The notes under the pieces: model-generated
What the model saw: the letters and a program-made list of their open reading frames with translations, nothing else
Databases searched by the model: none
What the model was told of the DNA's origin: nothing
Position numbers and translations under genes: made by a program
Source of the DNA: Bacteroidales bacterium
GTDB taxonomy: Bacteria; Bacteroidota; Bacteroidia; Bacteroidales; VadinHA17
Direction: 5' to 3'
Assembly: GCA_963668715.1 (NCBI GenBank)
Contig: OY764960.1
Span: 2,959,602 to 3,023,601 of the forward strand
DNA length: 64,000 nucleotides
Part shown: positions 7,408-49,170 of the stretch, in pieces
Layout of the letters: each line of letters begins with the position of its first letter
How positions within the stretch are numbered: the first letter of the stretch is position 1

Positions 7408-7428
7408 TATAACAGATTTTTTAGATTT

Positions 7429-12366: not shown

Positions 12367-12503
12367 TATCAGCCAGTTAAATAATATTCAACAGCTTGCC
12401 GAAAATAAGCACATGAAGAATTTTAAAGATGGCGGGATCGGTTATTGTCCCATATTCTTACGAGTCCTTCAGTTTTATTCCCCGAAAACCAAATAAAATA
12501 TTC

Positions 12504-12685: not shown

Positions 12686-12691
12686 CTGTGA

Positions 12692-12699
12692 CAAAAATA
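12692..12699 (-). promoter_or_regulatory. Bacteroidota -7 promoter-like box (TATTTTTG) for the riboswitch operon
   Basis: TATTTTTG on the minus strand ends 6 nt before the predicted P1 5' arm of the riboswitch. Confidence 0.45.
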
Positions 12700-12821
12700 A
12701 TGGATTGCTGTAAACAAAAATATGTTTGATATCAGTTTTTATGAAAACAAAGGGTTTGAAAGTCTGAGGCTGGCAAAGTGCATAGTGAAAAGCCTACAGT
12801 ACACAATGTTAATTCGTTGAT

Positions 12822-12877
12822 TTGTTAAGTTGTTAAGTTGTTAAGTTGTTTAGTTGTTAAGTTGTTTAGTTGTTTAG
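12822..12877. repeat. Tandem 8-nt word array (TTGTTAAG/TTGTTTAG x7), word family D
   Basis: Read directly: ttgttaag x3, ttgtttag, ttgttaag, ttgtttag x2. The same words recur at 46242-46298. Confidence 0.9.
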
Positions 12878-13827: not shown

Positions 13828-13919
13828 TGGCGGAGAGAGAGGGATTCGAACCCTCGGTCCCGATTACTCAGGACAACGGTTTTCGAGACCGCCCCGTTCG
13901 ACCACTCCGGCATCTCTCC
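13828..13919 (-). tRNA. tRNA-Ser (anticodon CGA), CCA encoded
   Basis: The minus strand reads GGAGAGATGCCGGAGTGGTCGAACGGGGCGGTCTCGAAAACCGTTGTCCTGAGTAATCGGGACCGAGGGTTCGAATCCCTCTCTCTCCGCCA. It folds as a cloverleaf with a long variable arm, anticodon loop CUCGAAA and T-loop GTTCGAATC. Confidence 0.9.
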
Positions 13920-21736: not shown

Positions 21737-24230
21737 GTCTATCCTGAAGTGTTTGTTTTTCAAGTATATCAATTGCCTTAATAAAAGCTGATCCGTAACC
21801 GGCATCATGTATCACGGAAAGAGCCTGTCTTGCCCTTGAATAACCCTGGTATTCACCAATGATATAACGGTAGAAACCATCTGCACTTTTTACTTCCCTG
21901 ACATTTTCAAGTCCTCTGAAATCTCCTGATGCTTTATTCTTAAGAGCATGGATCTGAATAGTATAAAGCTCAGGCAGTTCTTTCCGCGGGGCTGATGATT
22001 CGGGAAGGTCATATTCGGTTATTATATATGAATTTTTGAATCCTTTATCTGTGAGATCGGTCAGGCAGGAGAGAGCATCAAGTCTTGTCCTGAATCCGCC
22101 GAGAGCATATATATAATTGTTATTTAGCCGGTATTCGTTGATGAATGAGAACTGGCTTATCCCGAAGGTACTGAAGAATCCGGCTGAAAGCGGAGTGGCG
22201 GATTCCTTTATAACCACATAGAAACCGTAGTTATAAGGCTTCTTAAGATGGACAGGTACATTGAGATATGATTCAACAGGCAACAGATAACCGTTATTTT
22301 TAATATTGATGCTTACTCTGCGGTTGTATATGCGTCCGGTGGGATTGTCTTTTCCATTGGGTGTGAAATTGTCAGTAATAAAGTTCACTTCACCAGGCGC
22401 TTTTGTACTGAGTCTGTTTATATCAATACCCGCCTTAACCAGATAATCCCTTACTTTTACCGCTCTTTCCATGGAGAGCTTTTTATTATATGAAGCGCTT
22501 CCGATAGCATCGGCATATCCTTCGATTATGATATTCAGGTCGGGGTGGGAGAGAAGAACAGGTATAATTTTTTCAATTTCAATTTTGGCTTCTCTTTTAA
22601 GTCCGGTACTGTCGAAGCCGAAGAGAATATTCCTGATAGCAAGAAATTCACCGCTTGCAACCTTTTCAGGTATCAGATTACCGGTAATATATATATCCTT
22701 TTGTTCATATGACTCCGGAATACACAAGTTCACCGTATCAGTAATATATCCCGGGTATCTGAAGATAAAGTCAAACATTCCTTTTTGCAATTCTGAACTG
22801 AAGCTTCCTGATGAGTCGGCTCTGACAGATGCAAGCAGGGAGTCTTTTCCTGCGGCATATACTGATATTTCCAGTTGTGAAGGAATTATATCCAGTCCGT
22901 CTTCAAGAGACACATTCCCCATGGCAGTAATATGTCCGGATACGGCTTTTCCCAGTATACCCACAATATATATATTACTGAATGAAGAAGTGTCATCAGG
23001 GGGTATGCTTAATATTCCGGACCCTTCTGCACGTGGTACAAAATTAAGATCGTCCGATGTGGTATTAATTGGATATGGTATATGTACGGGATATGACCAG
23101 GTCCTGTCTTTACGGGAGTAGAAGATATCGTAACCGCCAAAGCCTTCGTGACCGGTAGAACTAAAATAGAGTGTTCCGGTTTTACTGTCATAATACGGGG
23201 TATTTTCTTCGAGAGAGGTGTTTATGACAGGGCCCAGATTTACGGGCTGAGATGCATTGAATTTATCATCAAGCTCTGCACTGTATATATCCAGACTGCC
23301 GTAGCCGCCGGGCATGTTGCTTGCAAAATACAGCATGGTACCATCGTTACTGATGCAGGCATGAGACTCCCAGTATTTTGTGTTCACATTCTTTCCAAAT
23401 TTATCAAGTCGGCTCCAGTTACCGTTTATCCGGTGCGACAGGTAAATATCTCCTCTGATACCGTTATTACGGGATATAACCAGTGTTTTACCATCTTTGG
23501 TTATCGAATTGGTATACATATCCTTATAATTACCGAGGTCGTCACTGATATTTTCAGGCACTGACCATGAGCCCGTATTTTTATATGAGCAATATATCCT
23601 GTTCTCATACTTCTCTTTTACAGTAAAGACAAATACAGAATCATTACCTGAGATAACCGGATTTATGGCATTACGGAAATCTGTTAGCCATGGCGCCAGC
23701 AGTTCTCTGGAGATCATCATGCTGGTGTCGGCTGACAGCAGAGTAAGACATGCTTTTATCTGTATATCTATATACTCAATTTCCCCTGCCTTCGTGACTT
23801 TTAGAAGGTTACGGTATTTTTTATAGCTTTCAACAGCTTTTTCGAGTTCCATGTTTACCTGATATGCAAATGCCAGGTAATAGTTTACATCAATAGGTGA
23901 TTTATCGCCAAGAGTTGAATAAGCAGGATCGTCAACCCATGATGATGAAGCATATTCGAGCAGTTCAAGTGCTTTTTTCTTTTTGCCCGTCATATTGAGG
24001 TAGCATACTCCCAGCTTATAATTCAGATTATGATTGCCGGGTTGTGTCTCCATAAGCTTCTCATATATACTGGCAGCTTCAGTGTAGTTTTCATCATATA
24101 TGAAATATCCGTCTGCCTCATTTGTCAGTCTTGTAATAAGTCTGATGTCGGACAATTCATCCTGGGCAGTAATATTAAGTATGCAAATAGAAAGAAAAAC
24201 AGTAATTATAGAGAACCTGACGGCATTCAT
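21720..24230 (-). CDS. TPR + TolB-like PD40 beta-propeller + OmpA-like + two SPOR-like domains (paralog D)
   Basis: Signal peptide and TPR-like helices (YKLGVCYLNMTGKKKKALELLE). PD40-like blades (YWESHACISNDGTMLYFASNMPGGYGSLDIY, YFSSTGHEGFGGYDIFYS). OmpA_C motif (NIIIEGYADAIGSASYNKKLSMERAVKVRDYL). C-terminal SPOR-like segments (YTIQIHALKN...GFYRYIIGEYQGYSRARQAL). Confidence 0.7.
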   Translation of the reverse strand: MNAVRFSIITVFLSICILNITAQDELSDIRLITRLTNEADGYFIYDENYTEAASIYEKLMETQPGNHNLNYKLGVCYLNMTGKKKKALELLEYASSSWVDDPAYSTLGDKSPIDVNYYLAFAYQVNMELEKAVESYKKYRNLLKVTKAGEIEYIDIQIKACLTLLSADTSMMISRELLAPWLTDFRNAINPVISGNDSVFVFTVKEKYENRIYCSYKNTGSWSVPENISDDLGNYKDMYTNSITKDGKTLVISRNNGIRGDIYLSHRINGNWSRLDKFGKNVNTKYWESHACISNDGTMLYFASNMPGGYGSLDIYSAELDDKFNASQPVNLGPVINTSLEENTPYYDSKTGTLYFSSTGHEGFGGYDIFYSRKDRTWSYPVHIPYPINTTSDDLNFVPRAEGSGILSIPPDDTSSFSNIYIVGILGKAVSGHITAMGNVSLEDGLDIIPSQLEISVYAAGKDSLLASVRADSSGSFSSELQKGMFDFIFRYPGYITDTVNLCIPESYEQKDIYITGNLIPEKVASGEFLAIRNILFGFDSTGLKREAKIEIEKIIPVLLSHPDLNIIIEGYADAIGSASYNKKLSMERAVKVRDYLVKAGIDINRLSTKAPGEVNFITDNFTPNGKDNPTGRIYNRRVSINIKNNGYLLPVESYLNVPVHLKKPYNYGFYVVIKESATPLSAGFFSTFGISQFSFINEYRLNNNYIYALGGFRTRLDALSCLTDLTDKGFKNSYIITEYDLPESSAPRKELPELYTIQIHALKNKASGDFRGLENVREVKSADGFYRYIIGEYQGYSRARQALSVIHDAGYGSAFIKAIDILEKQTLQDRHDDLR

Positions 24231-26152
24231 TCCCTGTTCCCCCTGAAGACGGTTTTTACAAATATTTCTTCAGGGTAACCCTGCCTGATAAGCTCATCCC
24301 TTCTTGTGTAAGCTTCACCCTTAGTCTCGAACTGGCCGGTTGTATATCTGTAGAAACGGTCGTCATCGTTATACACTACAGTTACCCTGGTATTCTTAAA
24401 GAAGCTCACATCGACAGGATTATAAAGAGCCATAAGCTGAATGGTGTAATACAGAACATCAGCATTGGTTGAGTCGGAATCACTTACATCTTTTATAATA
24501 ACATCGGTAACCAGTATTGATGAGTCTATCTCATCTATAACAGTGACTTTGGAAAAATCAAGTTTTTCAAATTCTTCAGGTATTTCGGCCACATAGTTAG
24601 TGTCGGGTTCAAGTGTAATGTTGATTATTTCCTCTTTTGAAGGGTGATCCTCAAGTATAGTAAGTTCCCTGGTAACAGGTATGTATGCAGGTCCTTCATA
24701 GGTAAGGCTGTAGATATCAGGTTTAACAAGGAAGCTGTAATGCCCGGATGTTTTGTTGGGATAACCGACGTCCAGGGTATCTTCAGATGAATTACTGTAC
24801 AGTATTATCCTGTAGTCATCAGTAAATTCTATTATTGTATCACTCAGGCTGAGCACTCCCTTTATTTCAAAAGTAGGTATTGACTGCTTCTCACCCAGAT
24901 TGATATAATAAATATCTTTTTCCTTATATCCTGTTACCATTGAATAAAAGGCATTTTGCCCGTTAATATATGGAAAGAAGAACAGGTCATCGTCAGGTGT
25001 ATTGACAGGGTAGCCGATATTGGAAGGGCTTTTCCATATACCACCTATGAGTCTTGATCTGAAGATATCATATCCCCCTATATTAGTGTGGCCTTCGGAG
25101 CTGAAGAACAGGATGGAGTCATTATTGGTTATAAAGGGTGTGTCTTCATTAAAAGGAGTATTTATTGCTGATCCCAGGTTTCTGGGATTTCCCCATTCTC
25201 CCTTACTGTCTTTTTCGGATACATATATATCCAGGCCTCCTTCTCCACCGTCCCTGTTTGATGTAAAATACAGTTTGTCTCCGCCGGATGATATTGAAGC
25301 ATGGGATTCATAGAACTTTGTATTTATATTCCTGTTCAGTTTTTGTACTCTTGACCATGACCCGTTTTCAAATGTCGACATATATATGTTTCCGTCGAAA
25401 TTATCATTTTTGTACAGGTATAGTTCAGTGCCGTCATAATTCAGCGAGTTGGAACTGCAGTCGGTATCCCCGCCGAGTTGTGCTGTAATATCTACAGGTT
25501 CGCCCCATTCACCTCTTTCTTTCTTAACATAATATATAGTATTTTCAAGACCTCTTTTTTCAGTATAGACCAGTGTGTTCCCGTCGCCGCTGACAGTTGG
25601 GTTAATATTAACCGAGCCCAGGTTTATGTCCGGACCCAGGCTTTCCTTACTGAAGTCAACGGGTTTTTCAACGGATGTCATAGCATTTCTGCATGCGCGT
25701 ATCTGCTGGTCGATAAAGTCTGCATTTTCCAGTTCTCCTTTGTCGGGCATCAGTTCATTGAGTTTAGCATATGTGCCCAGTGCTTTTTCAAATTCATAAT
25801 TGATCCTGTATGCAGAGGCAAGCGCAAAATATGCTTCAAGCGGAGCTCTGGTTTCCCTGAAAGATTCGGAGTTGGCATCATAGCTGGAATTCTTCACCGC
25901 ATCTTCAAGGTATGGTATGGCTTTTGTTTTTTCATCGGGAATATGCAGATAACAATTACCTATTTTAAATTTGATATTGGCATTTCCCGGCATATATTCG
26001 TCAAGAATGATGTAGAGCGGGTTTGCCAGTTCATATTCTCCGTACAGGTAATGTGATTCAGCCTCCACAAATATTTCGCGGAGATCGTCATTCTGCCCAT
26101 TGATATTAACAGCAATCAGGAGAATTATGACAGTAATAAGACTTCTATGCAT
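24227..26152 (-). CDS. TPR + TolB-like PD40 beta-propeller + SPOR-like domain (paralog C)
   Basis: The N-terminal TPR/PD40 architecture matches its neighbours (FYESHASISSGGDKLYFTSNRDGGEGGLDIY, FFSSEGHTNIGGYDIFRS). The C-terminus YYTIQLMALYN...RFYRYTTGQFETKGEAYTRRDELIRQGY is SPOR-like. It overlaps paralog D by 4 nt. Confidence 0.7.
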   Translation of the reverse strand: MHRSLITVIILLIAVNINGQNDDLREIFVEAESHYLYGEYELANPLYIILDEYMPGNANIKFKIGNCYLHIPDEKTKAIPYLEDAVKNSSYDANSESFRETRAPLEAYFALASAYRINYEFEKALGTYAKLNELMPDKGELENADFIDQQIRACRNAMTSVEKPVDFSKESLGPDINLGSVNINPTVSGDGNTLVYTEKRGLENTIYYVKKERGEWGEPVDITAQLGGDTDCSSNSLNYDGTELYLYKNDNFDGNIYMSTFENGSWSRVQKLNRNINTKFYESHASISSGGDKLYFTSNRDGGEGGLDIYVSEKDSKGEWGNPRNLGSAINTPFNEDTPFITNNDSILFFSSEGHTNIGGYDIFRSRLIGGIWKSPSNIGYPVNTPDDDLFFFPYINGQNAFYSMVTGYKEKDIYYINLGEKQSIPTFEIKGVLSLSDTIIEFTDDYRIILYSNSSEDTLDVGYPNKTSGHYSFLVKPDIYSLTYEGPAYIPVTRELTILEDHPSKEEIINITLEPDTNYVAEIPEEFEKLDFSKVTVIDEIDSSILVTDVIIKDVSDSDSTNADVLYYTIQLMALYNPVDVSFFKNTRVTVVYNDDDRFYRYTTGQFETKGEAYTRRDELIRQGYPEEIFVKTVFRGNRE

Positions 26153-26159
26153 AGCAGGC

Positions 26160-27437
26160 TTACTTAAATGTTATTTTATATATATCCTCCTTACCAAAAC
26201 CTTTTCCTTCCCTGAGCACTGAAATATAACCTGTACTTCCGTCCCCTACAGGCATAAAGAAATAGTCGTCATCCGAACTGTTGAGGGGGTAACCCAGGTT
26301 TTCCGGTTTTGACCATTTCCCGTTATCAAGCATGTCAGACCTGAAGAGGTCAAATCCACCCATATTATAATGACCCTGTGAGCAGAAAAACAGTTGCTTC
26401 CCGTTATTAACAAGAAAAGCCCTGTCTTCATTAAACGGTGTATTTATTTCAGGCCCCAGATTAATTGCTTTTCCCCATTCCCCTTTCTCGTTCCTGTAAC
26501 ATACATACAGATCAAGACCTCCCATTCCTCCTGGTCTGTCGGATGAAAAGATCATTGCTGACCCGTCGTCAGAAACAGTAGCATGAGATTCCCAGTAGTT
26601 TGTATTTATATTTCCGGATAGAGGCTCTGCAGCCGACCATTTAATGCCGTCGTAGCGGCTTAGATATATGTCGCTTTGGTCATTATTGTCTTTCGACATA
26701 TAAAGTGTGTTACCATTATCGGCAAGGCAGGATATATAAAGGTCACCGTCGGATTTCAGATCAGGGGTGATATTAACAGGAGGGCTCCATCTTCCTTTCT
26801 CCCTGAACGAAAAAAAGACGGCATCGTAAAACTTGAGAGAAGACATATACACAAACCGTAGTCCGTCGGCTGATATCACAGGATTAAAGTTACTGTTTGA
26901 GTCGTTAAACTGTTCCCCGATATTTTCCTCATCATATTTTACGGGTTTGCTCATCAGGTTTTTAGCATTATCGCAGACATCGATCTGATGTTCAATGAAC
27001 AATATATTATCGGTGTCATCATCGAGTAATGTTTCCCTGTATTTCTTATATGCTTCTTTGGCTTTGTCGAACTGGTAGTTTATTCTGTATGCGTTACCCA
27101 GGAAATACCAGGCCGTATAGGGTGAGGTTGCCTGACGCAGCGACCCTTCCTTATACGATGCGCCGGAGTATTTTGCAGCATCTTCAAGATACTCTATAGC
27201 TTTGTTTTTTTGTCCGGCTATTCCCATGTAACATATTCCAATCCTGTAGGAAAGGTTATGATTATCCGGATAGGCTTTAAATAGTTCCAGATAGTAAGGC
27301 AGAGCATCGGTATAATCTTCAAACATAAGAAAGTACTCAGCTTCCAGAAATGTTTCCTGATCTTTCTTAAAATTCTGGGAGTAAATGTTACTGCCAATGA
27401 TTGTAAAAAGAATCAGACTTGTTAATATTCGAGTCAT
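26160..27437 (-). CDS. TPR + TolB-like PD40 beta-propeller protein (paralog B, no C-terminal extension)
   Basis: Signal peptide, TPR-like region (YRIGICYMGIAGQKNKAIEYLE) and PD40 blades (YWESHATVSDDGSAMIFSSDRPGGMGGLDLY, FFCSQGHYNMGGFDLFRS). The gap to paralog C is 7 nt. Confidence 0.7.
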   Translation of the reverse strand: MTRILTSLILFTIIGSNIYSQNFKKDQETFLEAEYFLMFEDYTDALPYYLELFKAYPDNHNLSYRIGICYMGIAGQKNKAIEYLEDAAKYSGASYKEGSLRQATSPYTAWYFLGNAYRINYQFDKAKEAYKKYRETLLDDDTDNILFIEHQIDVCDNAKNLMSKPVKYDEENIGEQFNDSNSNFNPVISADGLRFVYMSSLKFYDAVFFSFREKGRWSPPVNITPDLKSDGDLYISCLADNGNTLYMSKDNNDQSDIYLSRYDGIKWSAAEPLSGNINTNYWESHATVSDDGSAMIFSSDRPGGMGGLDLYVCYRNEKGEWGKAINLGPEINTPFNEDRAFLVNNGKQLFFCSQGHYNMGGFDLFRSDMLDNGKWSKPENLGYPLNSSDDDYFFMPVGDGSTGYISVLREGKGFGKEDIYKITFK

Positions 27438-27534
27438 ATCCCGGGAGATTTGATTATAACAAAAATATTAAATTAATAAGAATATAAAAACCTGAATTAA
27501 TATATATAAAGCCAGACATTCATATTGTTATTAT

Positions 27535-30036
27535 TTAATCATTTTTTTTCTTTTTTTTTCCGGCTCCGAAAATTATTACAGTAACAGCCACTCCTCCCAG
27601 GATTATCCACAGAACCCACAGCTTTCTTCCTTTACCGGACTGGATATAGTCAACAATTTCTTCTGCCGTCTTATCGGTAGCGTTTATTATTTTCGAGAAT
27701 GCTTCAAATACTTCGTCCTTTGTATAGCCAAGCCTGTCTGTATTGCTTAGGAGGTAGCTGATTATTTCCTCGGGGCTGTGTTTTTTAAGTTCATCGAGAT
27801 CTATCTTTTCCAGTGATGCTTTCAGGTTATGATCTGCATACTGTACAAGCCTGTCCAGATATTCTTCGGCGCTGTTTCCAGACTCGGCAGACATAGCAGC
27901 GATAAGCTTTGTAAGAAGTTCTTTTTCAGCACCGTCCTCTATTGCCACCGAATACAATGATTCAAGCCATTCTCCTGCTTTCTTGATCTGTTTTTCATTT
28001 GTTTTCAGAATAGCTTCTTTAATTGTATTATCTGTTTCACTTACTTCAGTTATGATCTGACCCATGCGGTCGATAGATTCAGTCTCTTTTGTCTGAGTTG
28101 CCTTAAGACTGTCAAGAGCTCTCTGTTGAGCAAGCAGTACCTGTGGATCGGGTTCAGTAACCGGTTCTGTAATCTCCGGCTTAATTTCAGGTTCACTGGC
28201 AAGGAACTCAAAATCTTTTATAGTGACATTGTTGAACCGGTCCCTGATAGTAAATTTAAGTTTGTTATCACCTGTGACTGCTTCAGTTTTATAGTTAAAT
28301 GACGGTTCGTTAATATAGAATTCTTCTGTTTTAATCAGGCTGTCGCCCTGCCAGTGTTCAACGGTCAGTATTGAATTGGGTTCAAGTGTAAGGTCAAACA
28401 TGGCAGTATCACCCCGGCTGTATATAAGTGAGTCGAATACAACCGGTATTTCTATTTCAGCAATGAAGTCTGTTTTATGTAGTTGTTCTTCAGGCATCAG
28501 AATGCTGTCGGAGGGGTGTATCAGATCTATTCTCAGGTCTTTTTCAATTTTTTCGGAACCATCAGACTGATATACAACTTTATAATCCCCTTGTGGTATT
28601 TCGAACTCATACCGGCCGGTACGGGGATCAGAGTATACAGCTACCAGTGTATCCATGTTAGACTTTTCGAGTGCATAAATTTTCACGCTGTCGCTGTACT
28701 GGCTTAAAAGGTCCTTAAGTTTTACCATTCCTCTGACATAGAATTTTCTCGGATGTTCTTCGGAGAATACTTCCACCCTGTAAATATCCTCCATCCCAAA
28801 ACCATTAGGGTCAAACATTGAAACATATGCCAGATATCCCTCGCCTACAGGTGAGAAAAACACATCATCATCAGTAGTATTAACCGGGTATCCCATATTG
28901 ACAGGGACAGACCACTGGCCGTTTTCCATTTTTGTTGAATAGAAAATATCATGGCCTCCCATGTTAAAGTGCCCTCTGGAGCTAAAGAACAGAACGTTGT
29001 CGCTGCTGCCGAGGAAAGGTGTCTCTTCGTTAAACGGCGTATTGATAACAGGCCCCATGTTCACGGCCGGTCCCCAGTTGTCCAGGCTGTCTTTTTCGGA
29101 TACATAAATATCCAGCCCGCCGTAGCTGTCTTTACGGTTGCTTGTAAAGTAAAGTTTCTTGCCGTCGTTTGAGATGCATGCATGCGATTCCCAGTATTTG
29201 GTGTTTATGTTTTCGTTAAGTTTTTCAGCCGGCGTCCATCGTCCGTCAACGTAGTTACTGACGTAAATATTTCCGTCATAGCCGTCGTCCCTGTAGATAT
29301 ACAACTCTGTTCCGTCATGTGACAGGCACGTTGAATAACCGTCGTCAATCAGCAACTCTTCCTGTATCTGTACGGGAGGAGACCATACCGAATCAACTTT
29401 TTTTGAATAGAATATACCTTCATAAAAGGGCAATTCCCGTGTAAACACTATTGTTTTTTCATCGGCTGATACTACCGGACTGACATCTGATCTCTGGTCG
29501 TTTATAAATTCCCCCTGGTTCTCACGCTTGAGGTAAAGGGGGGTTTTCATAAGCTCTTTTGCATTTCTGCAGGCTTCAATTTGCAGCTTTACGATTGTTG
29601 AATCATACATTTTATGATCCATGCCCCTGTAGAAGGAACCGTATGTTTCAATTGCCTTATCCAGTTGGTTTGTTATTCTGTATGCTGTTGCGAGGTAGAA
29701 CAGGGCATCATAGGGGGCCTCTGTTTCTTTGAAACGGCCTTCCTTGTATTTCAGGTTAATATGTTGAACAGCACCCTGCAGATATGGTAATGCTTTTTCT
29801 TTTTCTCCCGGTGTATTAAGATAGCAGACCCCGATCCTGTATTTATAGTTATAGTTTTCAGGGTAGATATCCAGCAGATCCAGGTAAAGAGGGAGCGCTT
29901 CGGGGTATTCCTCGAACAACATCCAGGACTCGGCCTCAAAAAACATATCCTTGATTTCCCTCCTGCTTTGCGCTGATATTGTAGCTGAACTTAATAATAG
30001 GGCAATCAGTAGGAGTTTAATAGCCTGTCTGTTCAT
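27535..30036 (-). CDS. TPR + TolB-like PD40 beta-propeller + Ig-like/helical extension + C-terminal TM tail anchor (paralog A)
   Basis: Signal peptide and the same TPR/PD40 core (YWESHACISNDGKKLYFTSNRKDSYGGLDIY, FFSSRGHFNMGGHDIFYS). A ~400-aa extension ends in LWVLWIILGGVAVTVIIFGAGKKKKKND. Confidence 0.7.
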   Translation of the reverse strand: MNRQAIKLLLIALLLSSATISAQSRREIKDMFFEAESWMLFEEYPEALPLYLDLLDIYPENYNYKYRIGVCYLNTPGEKEKALPYLQGAVQHINLKYKEGRFKETEAPYDALFYLATAYRITNQLDKAIETYGSFYRGMDHKMYDSTIVKLQIEACRNAKELMKTPLYLKRENQGEFINDQRSDVSPVVSADEKTIVFTRELPFYEGIFYSKKVDSVWSPPVQIQEELLIDDGYSTCLSHDGTELYIYRDDGYDGNIYVSNYVDGRWTPAEKLNENINTKYWESHACISNDGKKLYFTSNRKDSYGGLDIYVSEKDSLDNWGPAVNMGPVINTPFNEETPFLGSSDNVLFFSSRGHFNMGGHDIFYSTKMENGQWSVPVNMGYPVNTTDDDVFFSPVGEGYLAYVSMFDPNGFGMEDIYRVEVFSEEHPRKFYVRGMVKLKDLLSQYSDSVKIYALEKSNMDTLVAVYSDPRTGRYEFEIPQGDYKVVYQSDGSEKIEKDLRIDLIHPSDSILMPEEQLHKTDFIAEIEIPVVFDSLIYSRGDTAMFDLTLEPNSILTVEHWQGDSLIKTEEFYINEPSFNYKTEAVTGDNKLKFTIRDRFNNVTIKDFEFLASEPEIKPEITEPVTEPDPQVLLAQQRALDSLKATQTKETESIDRMGQIITEVSETDNTIKEAILKTNEKQIKKAGEWLESLYSVAIEDGAEKELLTKLIAAMSAESGNSAEEYLDRLVQYADHNLKASLEKIDLDELKKHSPEEIISYLLSNTDRLGYTKDEVFEAFSKIINATDKTAEEIVDYIQSGKGRKLWVLWIILGGVAVTVIIFGAGKKKKKND

Positions 30037-34409: not shown

Positions 34410-34465
34410 CTTTAGTCTTTTGTCTTTAGTCTTTAGTCTTTTGTCTTTAGTCTTTAGTCTTTTGT
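34410..34465. repeat. Tandem 7-nt word array (CTTTAGT/CTTTTGT x8), word family A
   Basis: Read directly: ctttagt cttttgt ctttagt ctttagt cttttgt ctttagt ctttagt cttttgt. A degenerate cttcttc unit follows. Confidence 0.9.
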
Positions 34466-34476
34466 CTTCTTCTACA

Positions 34477-36643: not shown

Positions 36644-37298
36644 AAGGAATACGGTATATAATATAATATGATACTGCAGGCGAGAGGAAAGCATCAGTCC
36701 CGCCCATGCCGGGAATATAGACGGCTCCCTCACCGTTCTTGCCGGAGCAATAAATAAGTGTTCTTAGTTTTACAGCCCAGCCGATAAGCAGGTTATCGAA
36801 TATTTCAGCTTTGATACTTCCCTGCAGTTCCAGAAAATGAGCGGTAGCCCTGTTACTTTCAACTGAAGTAACTACTTCCCCCCAGTAGCTGTCCATGCTT
36901 ATAAAAGGAGTCTCCTGCTGAAAAACTGCTAATCCGTACCTTAGACCTATACCTGCAAAATGATTGATCTTCGTGGCAACAGGCTGAAGCATGCTTATAT
37001 CGGTCCCAAATCTCATAAAGTAACCCTTACACGAATATTCATAGTTGTAATTGTCAGTATTAAAACTTCCATATCCGGGTTCCAGTACGATAAAATACTT
37101 GTAATTCAGCCTGTAACTGAGATACCCTTCAAAATCAGATCTCGAATTGTCAATAGAGTAGAGGACAGGTCCTGTAACATCAAATCCCAGACTTACGGAT
37201 TTGCGTGCCTTAACGGTATCGGCCTGCTGCTGTGCTGAAGTATTAAAAAATATCAGCAGCAATAAAATGCTAAAAGAATATTTCAATATTCTCTTCAT
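36621..37298 (-). CDS. Predicted outer-membrane beta-barrel protein (hypothetical)
   Basis: Signal peptide (FFNTSAQQQ), alternating amphipathic beta-strand pattern, aromatic-rich strands. It overlaps the upstream lipoprotein gene by 29 nt and the convergent SSF gene by 23 nt. Confidence 0.5.
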   Translation of the reverse strand: MKRILKYSFSILLLLIFFNTSAQQQADTVKARKSVSLGFDVTGPVLYSIDNSRSDFEGYLSYRLNYKYFIVLEPGYGSFNTDNYNYEYSCKGYFMRFGTDISMLQPVATKINHFAGIGLRYGLAVFQQETPFISMDSYWGEVVTSVESNRATAHFLELQGSIKAEIFDNLLIGWAVKLRTLIYCSGKNGEGAVYIPGMGGTDAFLSPAVSYYIIYRIPFRHSSGE

Positions 37299-37725
37299 CT
37301 GAAGGATTAACGGAATTACTTGTTATTATTATATTTTTTATATCATCACCTGAGAAGTCCGCTTCCTCCAGTTCATAAAGGAAGATATATCCGCAGGCCT
37401 GTGACAGGAACTCAAGTTTCGCTTTGTAATATACTGATATGGTGTCAGTCCGCGTTCCGTTCTTAAAAATGAACGAGCAGGATGTCGATGAAGGATTGAG
37501 CGGCAGGCTTATACCGCTTTGCTTTCCCATTGAAACAATAAGAGAGTCAGGTATCTCCGTCCCGTATACCGTTAAGCTGTCAATAGTATACTGGTCACCT
37601 GATCCGCTTAAATAGAATCCTGCATTCATGTAAACTTCAGTATCCAGATCGCATGCTTCTCTGGTGCATGAACTTCCGTAAATGACAGCTAATACTATCA
37701 ACAGCCGGATAAATGTTTTTTCCAT
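37270..37725 (-). CDS. Small predicted lipoprotein (hypothetical)
   Basis: Signal peptide with lipobox (IYGSSCTRE), 151 aa. It appears translationally coupled to the beta-barrel gene downstream. Confidence 0.5.
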   Translation of the reverse strand: MEKTFIRLLIVLAVIYGSSCTREACDLDTEVYMNAGFYLSGSGDQYTIDSLTVYGTEIPDSLIVSMGKQSGISLPLNPSSTSCSFIFKNGTRTDTISVYYKAKLEFLSQACGYIFLYELEEADFSGDDIKNIIITSNSVNPSDEENIEIFF

Positions 37726-37796
37726 ATGTATAATACAAAACCGATGTCAAAAGTATGAAAAATGACTGTCCTAAAAAAGCCATGTTATACGATGAA

Positions 37797-38131
37797 GGGC
37801 AAAAGACAAAAGACTAAAGGAATGGAATGATGGAGTAAAGGAATAAAGGAATAATGGAATGATGGAATGATGGAATGATGGAATGATGGAATAATGGAAT
37901 AATGGAATGATGGAATGATGGAATGATGGAATGATGGAATGATGGAATGATGGAATGATGGAATGATGGAATGATGGAATGATGGGTCTTAAAAAGTAAA
38001 TAACATGAGACAGAATGCATACTGTCCGTTTGTCGTTAGTCGTTAGTCGTTTGCCCTTAGTCTGAACAACCCATTTAAACTCATTCTCAATCTTTTAAAC
38101 CCTTTTGTCTTTAGTCTTTAGTCTTTTGTCG
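37797..38131. repeat. Composite intergenic word-repeat element (modules A', B array, spacer, A variant, C', A)
   Basis: gggcaaaagacaaaagactaaag (37797-37819), then (ggaatgat)n, a 40-nt unique spacer and tttgtcgttagtcgttagtcgtttgcccttagtc. Next comes tgaacaacccatttaaactcattctcaatcttttaaaccc, then ttttgtctttagtctttagtcttttgtcg. The end arms are inverted complements. Confidence 0.9.
37819..37985. repeat. Tandem 8-nt array, about 20 copies of GGAATGAT (variants GGAATAAT, GGAATAAA, GGAGTAAA), word family B
   Basis: I counted units directly from 37824 to 37983: 20 full units plus partial units at both ends. Confidence 0.95.
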
Positions 38132-38136
38132 TACAA

Positions 38137-40773
38137 TCAGCCGGTTATGTCTTTTACCAGTTCCCTGACTCTGTCGAGAGCTGCTTTAATACCTCCGGGA
38201 TCACTTCCTCCGGCAACCGCCATAAACGGCTGGCCTCCTCCTCCTCCTTTTATCCGGCTGGCGGCATCACGCACGATATTTCCTGCATGGATATTCTTTC
38301 CTTTAACAAGATCATCACTAATCATTATCAGCAGGTGAGCCTTGTCTTCAATTTGTGTCCCGACAGCAAGAATGATGTTTTTATGTGCCGTTCTTATCAT
38401 CTGGGCGATCTTTTTCAAAATATCAACCGAGTCGACATCTATCTGTTCAGCTATAAAATTAATCCCTCCGATCTCTTCTGATTTATTAATCAGTTCAGTT
38501 CGTAAAGTTGCAGATATTCCGGATTCCAGTCTTTCAACTCTTTTATTAAGGTCATTGACCTGTTTAATGATCCTTGATACTGATTCTGTTATATCAGTAT
38601 TGCCCGGAAGCATATTTTCTATTTCTTCCAGTGTGGCGAGCTTGTTGTTTATATAGTCCAGGGCATGAGCGGAAGTGACAGCTTCTATTCTTCTTATACC
38701 TGCTGCAACAGCAGTTTCGGAAATAATTTTGAACATACCTATCTGCCCTGTATTTGAAACATGCGTACCGCCGCATAATTCAAGCGATTCCCCGAACCCG
38801 ACCACACGTACCTTTTCGTCATATTTTTCACCGAACAGGGCAATTGCTCCTTTTTCAAGTGCTTCATTCACCGGCATGTCTTCAATAATGCTGGCAGGAA
38901 TGTTTTTCCCTATAATTTCGTTAACAAGGTTTTCAATTTTCCTGATATCTTCGGGACTTATTTTTCCAAAATGGCTGAAGTCGAAACGTAGTTTTTTATC
39001 TGTAACCAGTGAGCCTTTCTGTTCAACATGCCTGCCAAGTATTTTTCTTAAAGCGTAATGCAGCAGGTGCGTTGCGGTATGGTTTCTGGCAGTTGCTTCC
39101 CTTTTACCGGTATCTACGAATGCCCTGTATATTTCATGAGGTTTTGCAGGTATTTTATTACTGATATGGATAATAAGGTTATTTTCTTTGACCGTATCGG
39201 TAATTATTATCTTCTCTTCACCGTTTGTTATGTATCCTGTATCGCCTGCCTGCCCTCCCGATTCGGCATAAAAAGGTGTTTTATCGAAGACCATCTGATA
39301 CAGTTCCTTTCCTTTTGCCTTAATTATACGGTATCGTGTAAGTCTGACTTCATCCATGGTTGTTTTGTAGCCGGTAAATTCCGTCCCCAGGTGTTCCTTT
39401 ACGATAGTCCAGTCGCCTGTTTCTTTTTCAGCATCGGTCTTTGATCTTTGCTTTTGTTTTTTCATCTCCCTTTCAAAACCTGACGTATCTACCTCTATTG
39501 AGCTTTCTCTAAGTATAAGTTGGGTAAGGTCAAGAGGAAATCCGTAGGTATCGTAAAGGACAAAGGCATCTTCTCCGGGAAAAATATTGGTCTCTGATTT
39601 TTTTATTTCAGGTAAACGCTTTTCTATAAGCTTAATACCCTTCCCTAAAGTATTGAGAAAGGCAATTTCTTCCTGTTTGATGGTTGTTGTAATATGTTGT
39701 TCCTGTGATCTCAGTTCCGGGAAGTATTCTCCCATGGTTTTTACGAGAACGGGAACGAGCCTGTAAATAAAGGGTTCATCCTGTCCAAGATAGTTATACC
39801 CGTATCTTATAGCCCTTCTGAGTATTCTTCTGATTACATAACCGGCCTTGTTATTTGAAGGTATCTGTCCGTCGGCCACTGAAAACGACACAGCCCTGAG
39901 GTGATCTGCCACCACCCTCAATGCTATATCGGTTTCTTCCCTTACATTGTATTTTATTCCTGTAATTGATGATATTTCGGTTATAAGCGACTGGAAAATG
40001 TCAGTATCGTAATTGGACTTTTTCCCCTGTACTGCCATACACAGCCTCTCAAAGCCCATCCCCGTATCGACATGCTTGTCGGGAAGCAATTCGAGCGATC
40101 CGTCTGCCTTCCTGTTATATTGAATAAACACAAGGTTCCATATCTCAATAACCAGAGGATGATTTTTATTTACGAGTGTATGTCCCGGAACATTCTTTCT
40201 TTCATCATTATCCCTGAGATCAAGATGTATCTCCGAGCACGGACCGCAAGGTCCCGTATCGCCCATTTCCCAGAAATTATCTTTTTTCGACCCGTTCAGT
40301 ATCCTGTTCCCGGTATCTCCCAGGTGCAAAGCCCAGTACCGGGCCGATTCGTTATCCCGTTCAAGTCCTTCTTCACTGCTGCCTTCAAATACCGTTGCAT
40401 AGATCCTGTCGGGAGAAATATTTAGTACTGAAGTAAGGAACTCCCAGGCCCATTCAATGGCTTCTTTCTTAAAATAATCCCCGAATGACCAGTTGCCCAG
40501 CATTTCAAACATTGTATGATGATAGGTGTCACGGCCAACTTCTTCGAGATCGTTATGCTTACCGGAAACCCTCAGACATTTCTGGCTGTCTGCCAGTCGT
40601 TTGCTTACCGGCTTTTCGTTTCCCAGAAAAATATCCTTAAACTGGTTCATCCCGGCATTTGTGAACATCAGTGTGGGGTCGTTCTTAAGCACCATGGGGG
40701 CTGATTTGACAATACTGTGTCCCTTTTCGCTGAAAAAATCAAAAAATGCCTTTCTTAGTTCTCTGGAATACAT
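38137..40773 (-). CDS. alaS: Alanine--tRNA ligase
   Basis: 878 aa, N-terminal FFDFFSEKGH, editing-domain HTATHLLH and CGGTH, C-terminal DHHA1-like GGGGGQPFMA. Confidence 0.95.
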   Translation of the reverse strand: MYSRELRKAFFDFFSEKGHSIVKSAPMVLKNDPTLMFTNAGMNQFKDIFLGNEKPVSKRLADSQKCLRVSGKHNDLEEVGRDTYHHTMFEMLGNWSFGDYFKKEAIEWAWEFLTSVLNISPDRIYATVFEGSSEEGLERDNESARYWALHLGDTGNRILNGSKKDNFWEMGDTGPCGPCSEIHLDLRDNDERKNVPGHTLVNKNHPLVIEIWNLVFIQYNRKADGSLELLPDKHVDTGMGFERLCMAVQGKKSNYDTDIFQSLITEISSITGIKYNVREETDIALRVVADHLRAVSFSVADGQIPSNNKAGYVIRRILRRAIRYGYNYLGQDEPFIYRLVPVLVKTMGEYFPELRSQEQHITTTIKQEEIAFLNTLGKGIKLIEKRLPEIKKSETNIFPGEDAFVLYDTYGFPLDLTQLILRESSIEVDTSGFEREMKKQKQRSKTDAEKETGDWTIVKEHLGTEFTGYKTTMDEVRLTRYRIIKAKGKELYQMVFDKTPFYAESGGQAGDTGYITNGEEKIIITDTVKENNLIIHISNKIPAKPHEIYRAFVDTGKREATARNHTATHLLHYALRKILGRHVEQKGSLVTDKKLRFDFSHFGKISPEDIRKIENLVNEIIGKNIPASIIEDMPVNEALEKGAIALFGEKYDEKVRVVGFGESLELCGGTHVSNTGQIGMFKIISETAVAAGIRRIEAVTSAHALDYINNKLATLEEIENMLPGNTDITESVSRIIKQVNDLNKRVERLESGISATLRTELINKSEEIGGINFIAEQIDVDSVDILKKIAQMIRTAHKNIILAVGTQIEDKAHLLIMISDDLVKGKNIHAGNIVRDAASRIKGGGGGQPFMAVAGGSDPGGIKAALDRVRELVKDITG

Positions 40774-45494: not shown

Positions 45495-46249
45495 AAGCAG
45501 GCGGGAAAGAAATGACCGTTGAGGAAAAACTAAAAGCCTTGTACAGGCTGCAGGTTGTAGATTCAGAAATAGATAAAATAAAGACACTCAGGGGTGAACT
45601 TCCGCTTGAGGTACAGGACCTTGAGGATGATGTTGAAGGTCTCGAGACCAGAATAACCAAACTTAAGGAAGAATTGGCTGATCTCGAAAATGCTGCCAGG
45701 GGCAAGCAAAACGAAATAGTGGATGCTGAGAACCTTATTAAAAAATATGAGGAACAGCAAAACAATGTGCGTAACAACAGGGAATATGATTCCCTTTCAA
45801 AGGAAATAGAATACCAGACCCTCGAGATAGAGTTGTGCAATAAAAAAATAAAGGAATATACGGGTCTGAAGGAAGAAAAGACAGTCGTCATTGAAGACTC
45901 GAAGAAGAATCTGGAAGAGTTGAAAGGTGATCTGGAGAATAAGAAATCGGAGCTTGACTCAATAATTGCCGACACAAGGAAAGAAGAAGAAGCTCTTGTG
46001 AAAGATTCTGATAATATTGGCAAGGTCATAGAAGACAGACTGTTAACAGCATATAAACGTATACGGCAGAACGCAAGGAACGGACTGGCAGTAGTTCCTG
46101 TCCAAAGAGATGCCTGTGGGGGCTGTTTTAACCAGATACCGCCGCAACGACAGCTTGATATTAAATCAAGAAAAAAAATAATAGTGTGTGAGTACTGCGG
46201 ACGTATACTGGTTGACGATGAAATACTTGGTGAAGAAAAAGCTGTTTAG
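45482..46249 (+). CDS. Coiled-coil protein with a C-terminal C4 zinc ribbon (DUF164-like Nif3 partner)
   Basis: E/K-rich coiled coil, then CGGCFNQIPPQ...CEYCGRIL. This pairing with nif3 is conserved. An alternative start is the ATG at 45512. Confidence 0.75.
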   Translation: MEKVKAGGKEMTVEEKLKALYRLQVVDSEIDKIKTLRGELPLEVQDLEDDVEGLETRITKLKEELADLENAARGKQNEIVDAENLIKKYEEQQNNVRNNREYDSLSKEIEYQTLEIELCNKKIKEYTGLKEEKTVVIEDSKKNLEELKGDLENKKSELDSIIADTRKEEEALVKDSDNIGKVIEDRLLTAYKRIRQNARNGLAVVPVQRDACGGCFNQIPPQRQLDIKSRKKIIVCEYCGRILVDDEILGEEKAV

Positions 46250-46337
46250 TTGTTAAGCTGTTTAGTTGTTAAGCTGTTAAGGCTGTTAAGCTGTTGATGG
46301 CCTTTAGCCTTTTGTCTTTAGCCTTTTGTCGTTTGCC
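46242..46337. repeat. Word-repeat locus: D-type 8-mers (CTGTTTAG/TTGTTAAG) followed by A-type 7-mers (CCTTTAG/CCTTTTG)
   Basis: ctgtttag ttgttaag ctgtttag ttgttaag ctgttaag gctgttaag ctgttgat, then cctttag ccttttg tctttag ccttttg tcgtttg. The TAG stop of the upstream gene (46247-46249) lies inside the first unit. Confidence 0.9.
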
Positions 46338-46442
46338 GTATCGTGAATTCCCTTCGTAACATTCGGTGTTATTTTAGCTGCCGGCCTTGTACTTTTTTTG
46401 TAACTTAGTCGGAACATCACAGCAATAAAATTAGCAGATACT

Positions 46443-48458
46443 ATGAATGAGTTCCATAAACAAATTCTGGAGGGTATTCCTGATGTGCTTCCGGCAGTTA
46501 AGCCATATGACAGCAATGTCAATCATGCACCGAAACGTAAAGATATACTTACAGCAAAAGAAAAACGTCTTGCAGTAAGAAATGCCCTGAGGTATTTTCC
46601 TGAAAATATGCATGAGCAACTGGCTGGTGAGTTTGCCGGTGAACTGAAAAAGTACGGCAGGATATATATGTACAGGTTCAGGCCTGATTATGTGATCAAG
46701 GCAAGGCATATCGATGATTTTCCACACAGATCAAGGCAGGCAGCTGCCATCATGTTAATGATAAGTAACAACCTGGATGATGCGGTGGCCCAGCACCCCC
46801 ATGAACTGATTACTTATGGCGGTAACGGGGCTGTATTCCAGAACTGGGCGCAATACAGGCTTGTTATGAAGTACCTGGCTACAATGACAGACCGTCAGAC
46901 CCTGGTTATGTATTCGGGTCATCCGCTAGGGCTTTTCCCTTCACATACAGAAGCTCCGCGTGTTGTTGTAACAAACGGAATGGTCATTCCTAATTATTCC
47001 AGCAGTGATCACTGGGAGAAGTTCAATGCGCTGGGAGTGAGTCAGTACGGACAGATGACGGCAGGTTCATATATGTATATCGGACCTCAGGGTATAGTGC
47101 ACGGTACAACAATAACGATCCTGAATGCTGCCAGGAGTATATCAGTCTCTGATACTGATAAAAGGTTAAAGCTGTTTGTTTCTTCCGGATTAGGGGGAAT
47201 GTCGGGGGCGCAGCCCAAAGCAGCAAGTATAGCAGGCGTAATATCCGTGATAGCAGAGGTTAATCCGAAAGCTATTGAAAAAAGGTATTCGCAGGGCTGG
47301 GTTGATGAGGTTATTGAAGATACCGCCGGCCTGGTTAAAAGAGTGAAGGAACTCAGAGAAGGAGATGAACCTGTTTCACTTGCATATCACGGAAATATAG
47401 TGGATGTATGGGAAGCTTTTGCTGAAGAAAGTATCATGGTCGATATAGGTTCAGATCAGACATCCCTTCATAATCCATGGTCAGGAGGATATTATCCGGC
47501 AGGCATAAGTTTTGAAAAAGCCAACAGCATGATGTCGGAGGATCCCGGTCAATTCAGGAAACTGGTACAGCAGTCATTGAAGAGACAGGTAAAGGCTATT
47601 AACAGACATACTGCCGCCGGAACATATTTTTTTGATTATGGTAATGCATTTTTACTTGAAGCATCCAGGGCAGGGGCAGATATTCTTAATTCTGATGGTA
47701 GCTTCAGGTATCCAAGTTATGTTCAGGACATTATGGGACCTGTTTGCTTTGACTATGGCTTCGGTCCTTTCAGGTGGGTATGTTGTTCAAACAGAAATGA
47801 AGATCTTGTTGTCACAGATGATATTGCCTGCGGTGTGCTTGAAGAAATATCGGCACACTCGCCGGAACGGATAAAGCAACAGATGCTTGACAATATTAAA
47901 TGGATCCGTGAGGCAGGTAAGAATAATCTGGTAGTAGGATCACAGGCAAGAATACTTTATGCTGATGCAGAGGGCAGGATAGAGATAGCTTCAGCCTTCA
48001 ACAGGGCTATAAGGGACGGAAGGATAAGTGCTCCTGTAGTGCTGGGCAGAGATCACCATGACGTGTCGGGCACGGACTCACCATTCAGGGAGACATCAAA
48101 TATTTATGACGGGTCGTGTTTTACAGCCGACATGGCAATACAGAATGTTATAGGTGATTCTTTCAGAGGCGCTACCTGGGTAAGTATTCATAATGGCGGC
48201 GGAGTAGGATGGGGTGAGGTCATAAACGGAGGGTTCGGACTTCTGCTTGATGGCTCGGATGATGTTGACAGACGATTGAAAACAATGCTCCACTGGGATG
48301 TTAATAATGGAATTGCGAGGAGAAGCTGGGCAAGAAATGATGAAGCTATGTTTACTGCAATCAGGGAGATGGAAAGAACGCCTGAACTGAAAGTGACAAT
48401 GCCTTATATAGCGGATGATAAGCTGATCGAAAATTTGTTCAGGGAAAAGGACGACTAA
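46443..48458 (+). CDS. hutU: Urocanate hydratase
   Basis: 671 aa, GLGGMSGAQPKA NAD-binding segment, YGGNGAVFQNW, GRDHHD; overall urocanase-like. Confidence 0.85.
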   Translation: MNEFHKQILEGIPDVLPAVKPYDSNVNHAPKRKDILTAKEKRLAVRNALRYFPENMHEQLAGEFAGELKKYGRIYMYRFRPDYVIKARHIDDFPHRSRQAAAIMLMISNNLDDAVAQHPHELITYGGNGAVFQNWAQYRLVMKYLATMTDRQTLVMYSGHPLGLFPSHTEAPRVVVTNGMVIPNYSSSDHWEKFNALGVSQYGQMTAGSYMYIGPQGIVHGTTITILNAARSISVSDTDKRLKLFVSSGLGGMSGAQPKAASIAGVISVIAEVNPKAIEKRYSQGWVDEVIEDTAGLVKRVKELREGDEPVSLAYHGNIVDVWEAFAEESIMVDIGSDQTSLHNPWSGGYYPAGISFEKANSMMSEDPGQFRKLVQQSLKRQVKAINRHTAAGTYFFDYGNAFLLEASRAGADILNSDGSFRYPSYVQDIMGPVCFDYGFGPFRWVCCSNRNEDLVVTDDIACGVLEEISAHSPERIKQQMLDNIKWIREAGKNNLVVGSQARILYADAEGRIEIASAFNRAIRDGRISAPVVLGRDHHDVSGTDSPFRETSNIYDGSCFTADMAIQNVIGDSFRGATWVSIHNGGGVGWGEVINGGFGLLLDGSDDVDRRLKTMLHWDVNNGIARRSWARNDEAMFTAIREMERTPELKVTMPYIADDKLIENLFREKDD

Positions 48459-48795
48459 AGACCAAAGGCTAACGACGAAAGGCAAAAGGATTTAAAAGGT
48501 TGAGAATGAGTTGAGAATGAGTTTAAATGGATTGTTCGGACTAAAGGCTAACGACGAACGACTAAAGGGTTGAGAAAAGTTTATAAAAGTTGAATGAGTT
48601 TAGATGACTCCTAATTAACTAATCACCCAATATACAAATTAACATTGTGGATTGTGGACTGCGGATTGAGGACGAAAGGCAGAAGGGTTTAATAGGTTGA
48701 GAATGAGTTGAGAATGAGTTTAAAATGTCATCATTCCAGTACTCCAGTATTCCAGCATTCCACTCCTTTAGTCTTTTGTCTTTCGTCGTCAGTCC
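48445..48795. repeat. Composite intergenic word-repeat element (A', C, A', C-like, unique, E words, A', C, B', A)
   Basis: It is colinear with the reverse complement of 37797-38131. For example, caaaaggatttaaaaggttgagaatgagttgagaatgagtttaaatggattgttcggactaaaggctaacgac matches caaaagggtttaaaagattgagaatgagtttaaatgggttgttcagactaagggcaaacgac. The right end is tcatcattccagtactccagtattccagcattccactcctttagtcttttgtctttcg. Confidence 0.9.
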
Positions 48796-48804
48796 TGTAT
48801 GTAA

Positions 48805-49170
48805 TCAAAAATTGCTGTTGTTCAGCATTATAAGCATACAATCCTCAATTACCTCAATACCCTGTGAACGAGCCATGTCGGCAAAGACCGGATTGCGTGT
48901 GCCGGGATTAAATATAATACGTCTGGGCTCAAGCGACAGGATATAATCGTAATATTCCTCCTGGTTCTTAGGGTTAAGATAAAGGCTTACCGTATGTACC
49001 GGACCTATATTATCAGGCTTGCCCTGCCTTATTTTTATCCCGTCAAGGTCAGCATCTTTCCTTCCGATAGCTATTACAGGTATATTCCTTCTTTGAAGGC
49101 TTCTGACAGCCTTATAGGCGAACCTGTCGGGTTTGTGGCTTGCTCCCAGGACTAATGTGGTTTTTTCCAT
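48805..49170 (-). CDS. CoA-binding domain protein
   Basis: 121 aa, TTLVLGASHKPDRFAYKAVRSLQRRNIPVIAIG Rossmann-like CoA-binding motif. Confidence 0.75.
   Translation of the reverse strand: MEKTTLVLGASHKPDRFAYKAVRSLQRRNIPVIAIGRKDADLDGIKIRQGKPDNIGPVHTVSLYLNPKNQEEYYDYILSLEPRRIIFNPGTRNPVFADMARSQGIEVIEDCMLIMLNNSNF

Follow-up and report, generated by a model that had tools for sequence, protein, structure and literature searches.

A composite intergenic island of short tandem repeats downstream of alaS in a Bacteroidales genome

We analysed a 64-kb stretch of DNA (the window) from a Bacteroidales genome assembled as a single 4.27-Mb contig (4,266,116 bp), in which alaS is followed by a 335-bp intergenic element (window positions 37797-38131) that consists of arrays of short words. 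On balance we favour the view that this element is an island of short tandem repeats with units of 7, 8 and 11 nt, so far confined to this lineage, which was built in place by slippage and local copying and is not an inserted mobile element. It would belong with the arrays known as short tandemly repeated repetitive sequences (STRR) and long simple-sequence repeats (LSSR). The analysis demonstrated the module anatomy of the element, a core common to two loci, the absence of the arrays from the orthologous sites of relatives and the local derivation of the element's centre. The finding is real and non-random, yet it is an example of a phenomenon that has already been described, intergenic short-tandem-repeat islands.

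A preliminary description of the region, made from the sequence alone, had presented it as a modular, non-coding composite, and each of its modules was recovered in place (Table 1). Here, H+ denotes a heptamer array of the form GACNAAA and H- its complement, GTCTTTN. Read in the sense of alaS (minus strand), the order of modules is H+, E, H+, a unique spacer of 40 nt, 20.5 copies of an 8-mer, and H-; Tandem Repeats Finder (TRF) called all three heptamer arrays as well as the 8-mer array. In this sense the proximal H+ array contains CGACAAAAGACTAAAGACTAAAGACAAAAGG and the second H+ array reads GACTAAGGGCAAACGACTAACGACTAACGACAAACGG, while the E module is composed of a single 11-mer unit, GTTGAGAATGA, between TTTAAA flanks. 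The 8-mer unit reads GGAATGAT on the plus strand, which in alaS sense is CCATCATT. Its copies are identical in the centre of the array and degenerate toward both edges, a pattern that fits recent slippage. The description had also stated that the region is free of open reading frames (ORFs). This is true only insofar as the ORF of 68 codons at 37814-38020 is a by-product of the 8-mer array.

The element extends from the stop codon of alaS (ORF 38137-40773, minus strand; Pfam tRNA-synt_2c) to a point 10 nt short of a putative promoter block that precedes the gene for a 151-aa DUF6452 protein (37270-37725, minus strand). This block is conserved in relatives and marks the outer boundary of the element. 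The element has a single terminator-like hairpin, which is weak (minus strand 38027-38008; 6-bp stem and T-rich tail). Its location inside the unique spacer would place H+-E-H+ within the 3' untranslated region (UTR) of alaS, and the 8-mer array and H- beyond the hairpin.

The words of the element are far more frequent in the window than expected by chance. A heptamer 15-mer, with up to 2 mismatches allowed, had 18 matches against 0.19 expected, and a 13-mer from the E module, with up to 1 mismatch, had 5 against 0.17. All of these matches are intergenic and fall within 4-5 spacers of the window. At five loci TRF reported periods of 7, 8, 11, 14, 16 and 21, and we estimate from the spans of the loci that word arrays make up about 900 of the approximately 4,200 intergenic bases in the window, or about a fifth. 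One of the other loci is a second composite element next to hutU. Its order is H+, E, H+, E', a unique segment, (ATTGTGG)n, H+, E, (CATTCCAG)n and H-, and it has the same arrangement as the alaS element (H+, E, H+ ... 8-mer array, H-). The H+-E-H+ core of about 100 nt is common to the two elements, with 80-85% identity and one indel of an 11-nt unit. It is present in three copies at these two loci, the third being a partial copy inside the hutU element, and a search of all retrieved loci (numbered with the prefix L below) with a profile of the core (nhmmer) found only the three copies in the window. Recurrence of the words at four other intergenic loci had been proposed. All four are real; however, the octamer words of the locus at 12807-12874 are related only to those at 46239-46295 and not to the alaS element. 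The H- type array that completes the latter locus (46239-46335) has the units GCCTTTA, GCCTTTT and GTCGTTT.

Comparison with relatives indicated that the arrays are absent from the corresponding sites. The nearest proteins in the protein collection were 73-74% identical for alaS and 82-83% identical for hutU. The gene order in these relatives is alaS, a 592-aa AMP-binding gene, DUF6452 and DUF6048. The AMP-binding (acyl-CoA-ligase-like) gene lies at 6638-8662 in locus L119 and at 6638-8661 in L122, whereas the window lacks it between 37726 and 38136 and has the 335-bp element instead; tblastn detected no remnants of it in the element or in the rest of the window. No arrays of the window type were found in the syntenic loci of relatives, compared with 10 arrays totalling 464 bp in the syntenic 20.5 kb of the window. 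One relative lineage, in which hutU is 83% identical, shows a 4-nt overlap (TTAA; L354 8004-8007, also L355 and L356) between hutU and the convergent CoA-binding gene, and the counterpart of this overlap in the window is 346 bp of repeats (48459-48804). The C-terminus of hutU is LFSD* in relatives and LFREKDD* in the window, where the last codons and the stop come from the array and lengthen the protein by 3 residues. The Zn-ribbon gene likewise takes its stop codon from an array, and the spacer between this gene and hutU, which in relatives measures 99 bp and has a canonical terminator, is 193 bp long in the window. In one relative (L352 5819-5921), in-frame hexamer repeats (GAGAAG, GCTAAG) that encode an EK-/AK-rich tail extend the Zn-ribbon gene by 31 residues. 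This tail occupies the 3' end that, in the window, carries octamer arrays lying out of frame.

The centre of the alaS element could be traced to sequence that was probably present before the arrays. The unique spacer, together with the first 8-mer units, gave a co-linear alignment with the spacer 3' of alaS in one relative lineage (score 34; p = 0.004 from 500 shuffles). The aligned spacer contains CATCATTCCAT once, equivalent to 1.4 units of the 8-mer, on the matching strand and at the matching position. A second relative lineage shares TGTTATTTA at the corresponding place. By this alignment the centre of the element appears to be old local sequence, in which the array of 20 units was amplified in place. 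Homology of the unique spacer and of the 8-mer seed to the alaS 3' spacer of relatives argues that the element was assembled where it lies and was not inserted as a unit.

These observations would be accommodated by a model with three steps. The core of about 100 nt would have been copied in directly past the stop codon of alaS; the native 8-mer of the old alaS 3' spacer would have been amplified approximately 20-fold by replication slippage; and an inverted copy of the heptamer array would have come to lie at the junction where the 592-aa AMP-binding gene was lost. Spread between loci may have occurred by homology-driven copying, through template switching or gene conversion between heptamer arrays, without a dedicated transposase. 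The arrays presumably persist because the first bases past a stop codon tolerate insertions, and the inverted arms and the long-range stem between them would then be by-products with no sequence-specific function. If this explanation is true, the locus illustrates clearly how intergenic DNA of bacteria is remodelled by repeat islands: the arrays adjoin stop codons or rewrite them, keep apart convergent genes that in relatives overlap, and mark the site of a lost 592-aa gene. Its practical use would lie in annotation (spurious ORFs, assembly breaks and strain typing by copy number), and concepts would be unchanged.

Several observations weigh against assembly by slippage and local copying. The same order of modules in two elements, with a 100-nt core that is 80-85% identical, requires a copying mechanism. 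Homology of the centre to the ancestral spacer is drawn from one alignment (p = 0.004) and a short co-linear match in the second lineage. The arrays start between -10 and +8 nt from five stop codons, and all four of the stop-adjacent heptamer arrays (4/4) read GACNAAA in the sense of the gene, so that stop-proximal placement and constant orientation could reflect targeting or function and not mere tolerance. It is also possible that a transposase, or a REP-associated tyrosine transposase (RAYT), is encoded elsewhere in the 4.27-Mb genome, beyond the 64-kb window. We considered whether H+ in sense after a stop codon is a general rule and rejected this: it applied to 4/4 arrays in the window, but in other genomes the count was approximately 12 against 6 by rough ORF calls, and other configurations were equally common.

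Arrays of a comparable kind have been described in several groups of bacteria. STRR sequences of heterocystous cyanobacteria are intergenic and dominated by heptamers. The words in the window differ from the classical STRR1-3 sequences. LSSRs have units of 5-11 nt, of which heptamers are the most abundant class (Mrazek et al. 2007, as summarised in PMC4679880). The arrays in the window resemble both in being intergenic and heptamer-dominated, with several words per genome, many loci, a sporadic distribution among lineages and a presumed origin by slippage; their units of 7-11 nt stand head to tail and are dispersed over several intergenic loci. The cyanobacterium Brasilonema (L055) carries the very GTCTTTN array of the window. 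In contrast to STRRs and LSSRs, the window joins heptamer arrays to arrays of 8 and 11 nt in an order that recurs, and it has a core of about 100 nt common to two loci. Assemblages of TAACTGA and other heptamers have been reported in Beggiatoaceae, cyanobacteria and five Bacteroidetes (MacGregor 2015, PMC4679880). Gramella, Aequorivita and Elizabethkingia have heptamer assemblages at sites where the spacers of close relatives are shorter and free of repeats (PMC4679880), as is seen at the loci in the window. The differences are that the heptamer is TAACTGA in those assemblages and GTCTTTN / GACNAAA in the window, that they lie upstream of start codons whereas the arrays in the window follow stop codons, and that a composite syntax with inverted arms is present in the window and undescribed there. 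It had been suggested that the element is unlike any described repeat family. There is no match to Rfam, where only chance-level hits (E about 9) were obtained at 37600-38300 and none at 46150-48900, and none to CRISPR or repetitive extragenic palindromic (REP) sequences. The suggestion was nevertheless too strong, as assemblages of heptamer tandem repeats have been described in prokaryotes including Bacteroidetes. CRISPR repeats are about 23-50 nt long and separated by unique spacers of similar length, whereas the units here are 7-11 nt, head to tail and spacer-free.

We also scanned the genome collection with the 15-mer CTTTAGTCTTTTGTC, a short pattern with many chance matches, and the following counts refer to loci among the matches listed. 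About a third of these loci were true (GTCTTTN)n arrays, which frequently had further arrays of 7 or 8 nt beside them and in some cases formed inverted pairs. The hosts comprised Bacteroidales metagenome-assembled genomes (MAGs), Flavobacteriia, Ca. Hatepunaea, Cloacimonadota, Patescibacteria, Omnitrophota and the cyanobacterium Brasilonema. The occurrence of similar composite islands of 7- and 8-nt arrays in many phyla is in favour of an element of a known kind. Arrays of at least 4 units were also present in 32 viral contigs, including giant-virus bins. Related IMG/VR contigs with identical flanks carried (GTCTTTC)n of 5, 8, 10 and 4 units (L245, L260, L262 and L275), and we interpret this variation as slippage in action. 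In giant-virus MAG contigs (L246, L251-L253, L255, L259, L268, L270, L274, L276), (GTCTTTT)n and (GTCTTTA)n reached up to 16 units, which indicates that this heptamer repeat also exists outside bacteria.

With the exception of one E-core word, the loci and metagenome contexts inspected contained no further E or 8-mer modules. A metagenome scan with a 17-mer from the E core returned 120 loci, and in the best 40 of these 120 all but L175 appear to be chance or coding matches (for example to the peptide ENEFK). L175 (355-535; a JGI metagenome contig) has a long heptamer array of CGTGAGT / CGTGAAT followed by TTGAGAATGAGTTTAAATTGTTGAGAATCA, which places the E-core word in a repeat context. In two Bacteroidales MAG loci (L006 5461-5770 and L032 5917-6191) the (GTCTTTN) arrays are flanked by 8-mer arrays of the AGGAATTC and TTAGAGGA types. 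These echo the GGAAT-containing 8-mer that stands beside the heptamer array of the window, and hint at recurrent word combinations across Bacteroidales. The MAG of Ca. Hatepunaea meridiana holds 5 of the at least 118 array loci among the matches listed. It includes a cold-shock-domain gene (L025 169-448, minus strand) whose product is 43-44% identical to BsCspB and EcCspA, with GCTTTAGTCTTTTGTCTTTAGTCTTTTG directly past its stop codon.

Of the alternatives, the least improbable is that the element is mobile but non-autonomous and contains a minisatellite, that is, a MITE (miniature inverted-repeat transposable element) with heptamer arms as terminal inverted repeats for a transposase encoded elsewhere. 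Bacteroidales provide a precedent in BrickBuilt of Porphyromonas gingivalis, a MITE with an internal 23-nt minisatellite, a leader, a tail and small inverted-repeat ends (Klein et al. 2015, PMC4596501). Like BrickBuilt, the element is always intergenic, multi-copy and modular, with a spacer-free internal tandem array. Compared by description, BrickBuilt has a 23-nt unit with conserved, defined leader and tail subunits, whereas the alaS element has an 8-nt unit, ends made of heptamer arrays and a local centre. The shared module order and inverted heptamer ends of the two composites are as expected for a MITE, as is the clean empty hutU site in relatives, where a possible target-site duplication is weak (CTGTTCAG to the left vs CTGTATG to the right, or a TCAG at each side). 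At the alaS element no target-site duplication was seen. The scan of window proteins, which covered 40 of 44, identified no transposase or RAYT, and a BLAST search of plasmid and phage records (low-complexity filter on) gave no match to the element. The arms are heptamer arrays of variable length, so that defined terminal inverted repeats common to all copies could not be recognised, and simple arrays of the same words stand without a partner at 34410 and 46300. In addition, the 335 bp cannot have arrived as one unit if, as the alignment suggests, the centre derives from the local ancestral spacer. We consequently regard a MITE as unlikely, and the idea that the arms are transposon-like ends was not borne out.

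The arms also recall REPINs, which are inverted REP doublets that form hairpins and are mobilised by RAYT transposases (PMC3116915). Both are short extragenic repeats in inverted pairs with the potential to form hairpins in single-stranded DNA or mRNA, and both invite interpretation as selfish DNA. However, REPINs have palindromic units of about 16-20 nt, a short spacer and a link to RAYT, while the heptamers in the window are non-palindromic and tandem, with arms about 290 nt apart, and no Y1 transposase was present among the window proteins scanned.

The inverted arms are real in themselves. The perfect 15-nt inverted pair noted previously was confirmed at 37805-37819 / 38116-38130, and it extends to 27 nt at 85% complementarity. 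The arms of the composite elements are 289-296 nt apart, and a long-range H+/H- stem was present in the minimum-energy folds of both. The folds of whole elements were not more stable than those of dinucleotide shuffles (z = -1.61, -1.65 and -1.44). With RNAduplex, the H- arm of the alaS element paired with its own partner at -24.6 kcal/mol and with the recR array at -28.1 kcal/mol, and for every H- arm the H+ arrays from other loci were at least as good a partner as its own. Private variant units or covariation between the arms of one element were sought in the same way and rejected, as no arm preferred its own partner. Arm complementarity is therefore generic, the consequence of one heptamer family in both orientations, and points neither to a selected stem nor to transposon ends; the long-range stem proposed earlier finds no support in these results.

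A functional role of the arrays in RNA was also considered. The element could be a functional 3' UTR element in which (GUCUUUN)n would serve as a multivalent platform for cold-shock-domain or other single-stranded RNA-binding proteins, and the H+/H- stem, which these proteins would cause to form or to melt, would tune termination, read-through or mRNA stability. The H- strand, (GTCTTTA)(GTCTTTT)(GTCTTTG), matches the heptamer consensus of CspB. The optimum reported for Bacillus subtilis CspB is 5'-GTCTTTG/T-3', C being strongly preferred at position 3 (PMC1904285), and the protein has been co-crystallised with the RNA GUCUUUA (PMC7825780). In 201 units from many taxa, which were not used for seeding, the frequencies were G.77, T.80, C.95, T.78, T.94 and T.87. 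Position 3 is the most conserved and position 7 is free, in line with the preference of CspB; in contrast to the CspB logo, conservation is lower at T2 and T4 than at T5. The arrays are situated between stop codon and terminator, in 3' regions that are transcribed, the four heptamers past the stop codon of the Ca. Hatepunaea cold-shock-domain gene fit the CspB consensus in sense, and Bacteroides has a canonical cold-shock protein and RRM-1 RNA chaperones (PMC13370968). However, the sense RNA past 4/4 stop codons in the window carries the complementary AAAGAC and not GUCUUU, and in other genomes the arrays have no uniform orientation with respect to genes. There was no enrichment of GTCTTTT in 2.9 M viral contigs, where (GTCTTTT)x4 occurred at 18 loci and isocompositional control heptamers at 23, 25, 9, 13 and 5. 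The array words GGAATGAT, TGTTAAGT and GTTGAGAATGA would be left unexplained, there is neither arm covariation nor a significant fold z, and the absence of the elements from relatives marks them as dispensable. An RNA-level role is, on this evidence, quite improbable.

A broader form of this proposal, for which we see very little likelihood, is that the (GTCTTTN)n arrays of Bacteroidota, Cloacimonadota, Patescibacteria, cyanobacteria and viruses might be multivalent docking sites of high affinity for cold-shock-domain proteins, with one protein per heptamer. Together with inverted (GACNAAA)n they would form long-range stems in 3' UTRs that the chaperone melts, acting as a temperature- or chaperone-responsive switch of termination or mRNA stability. 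If the exact correspondence between the most widespread heptamer and the optimum of the cold-shock protein is real, heptamer repeats that have long been without a function would gain a testable molecular partner, and this is the sole part of the finding that might carry broader weight.

Termination by Rho was the other transcriptional explanation considered. Here the G-poor and C-rich 164 nt of (CCAUCAUU)n in alaS sense would load Rho behind the weak intrinsic terminator, and the element would insulate or terminate transcription and shield the downstream promoter. The alaS-sense 8-mer array is almost G-free with 37% C and has YC dimers at regular spacing, the weak terminator-like hairpin lies just upstream of it, and the hutU element, read in the sense of hutU, likewise has a distal part rich in C and poor in G. 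A rut-like character is lacking in other arrays of the family (TGTTAAGT, AAGCTGTT, H+), relatives do without any spacer between the convergent genes, and the composition could be an accident of the word that was amplified; we consider a Rho-dependent role very unlikely. That the arrays are an artefact of long-read assembly is scarcely credible: the source is a single contig and no independent assembly of the same organism was found, but the arrays have specific variant units at fixed positions and words common to five loci, the flanking genes are intact, with hutU and the Zn-ribbon gene ending at array-supplied stops, and equivalent arrays occur in many independent short-read MAGs.

Table 1. 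Repeat modules of the alaS element, the adjoining promoter block and the other array loci in the window
Feature	Position	Strand	Details
Left arm	37797-37819		plus-strand GGGCAAAAGACAAAAGACTAAAG
Distal inverted heptamer array, H-	37797..37821	-	alaS sense CTTTAGTCTTTTGTCTTTTGCCC, i.e. (GTCTTTN)n
8-mer array	37822..37985	-	period 8, 20.5 copies, 94% matches (TRF)
Unique spacer, ~40 nt	37986..38026	-	terminator-like hairpin; aligns with alaS 3' spacer of relatives
Second H+ array	38027..38066	-	variant units GACTAAC / GACAAAC; plus strand CGTTAGT/CGTTTGC at 38027-38062
E module	38072..38101	-	30 nt, GTTTAAAAGATTGAGAATGAGTTTAAATGG in alaS sense
Proximal H+ array (right arm, 38102-38130)	38102..38131	-	alaS sense CGACAAAAGACTAAAGACTAAAGACAAAAG; begins 5 nt past alaS stop
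DUF6452 putative promoter block, outside element	37747..37786	-	90% identical to relatives; contains TACTTTTG
Octamer array TGTTAAGT / TGTTTAGT, 8.5 copies	12807..12874	+	between GNAT gene stop and cobalamin riboswitch
Simple H array	34410..34468	-	21-mer, 2.8 copies; 8 nt past recR stop; H+ in recR sense
Octamer array AAGCTGTTTAGTTGTT, 3.5 copies, then H- type array	46239..46335	+	supplies Zn-ribbon gene stop
Second composite element	48445..48804	+	between convergent hutU and CoA-binding genes

Several further features of the window were recorded. The cobalamin riboswitch (Rfam RF00174, 104.9 bits) is at 12492-12698 on the minus strand, upstream of a TonB-dependent receptor gene (10351-12366), and the TGTTAAGT octamer array is located about 110 nt upstream of the riboswitch. 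A tRNA gene of 89 nt, probably of the long-variable-arm type (Rfam RF00005, 57.1 bits), was identified at 13831-13919 on the minus strand in a divergent spacer of 619 bp. On the same strand, the region 21720-30036 contains four consecutive paralogous genes for PD40 (WD40-like beta-propeller) proteins, two of which have TPR repeats and one an OmpA domain; this cluster looks like a tandem gene family expansion.

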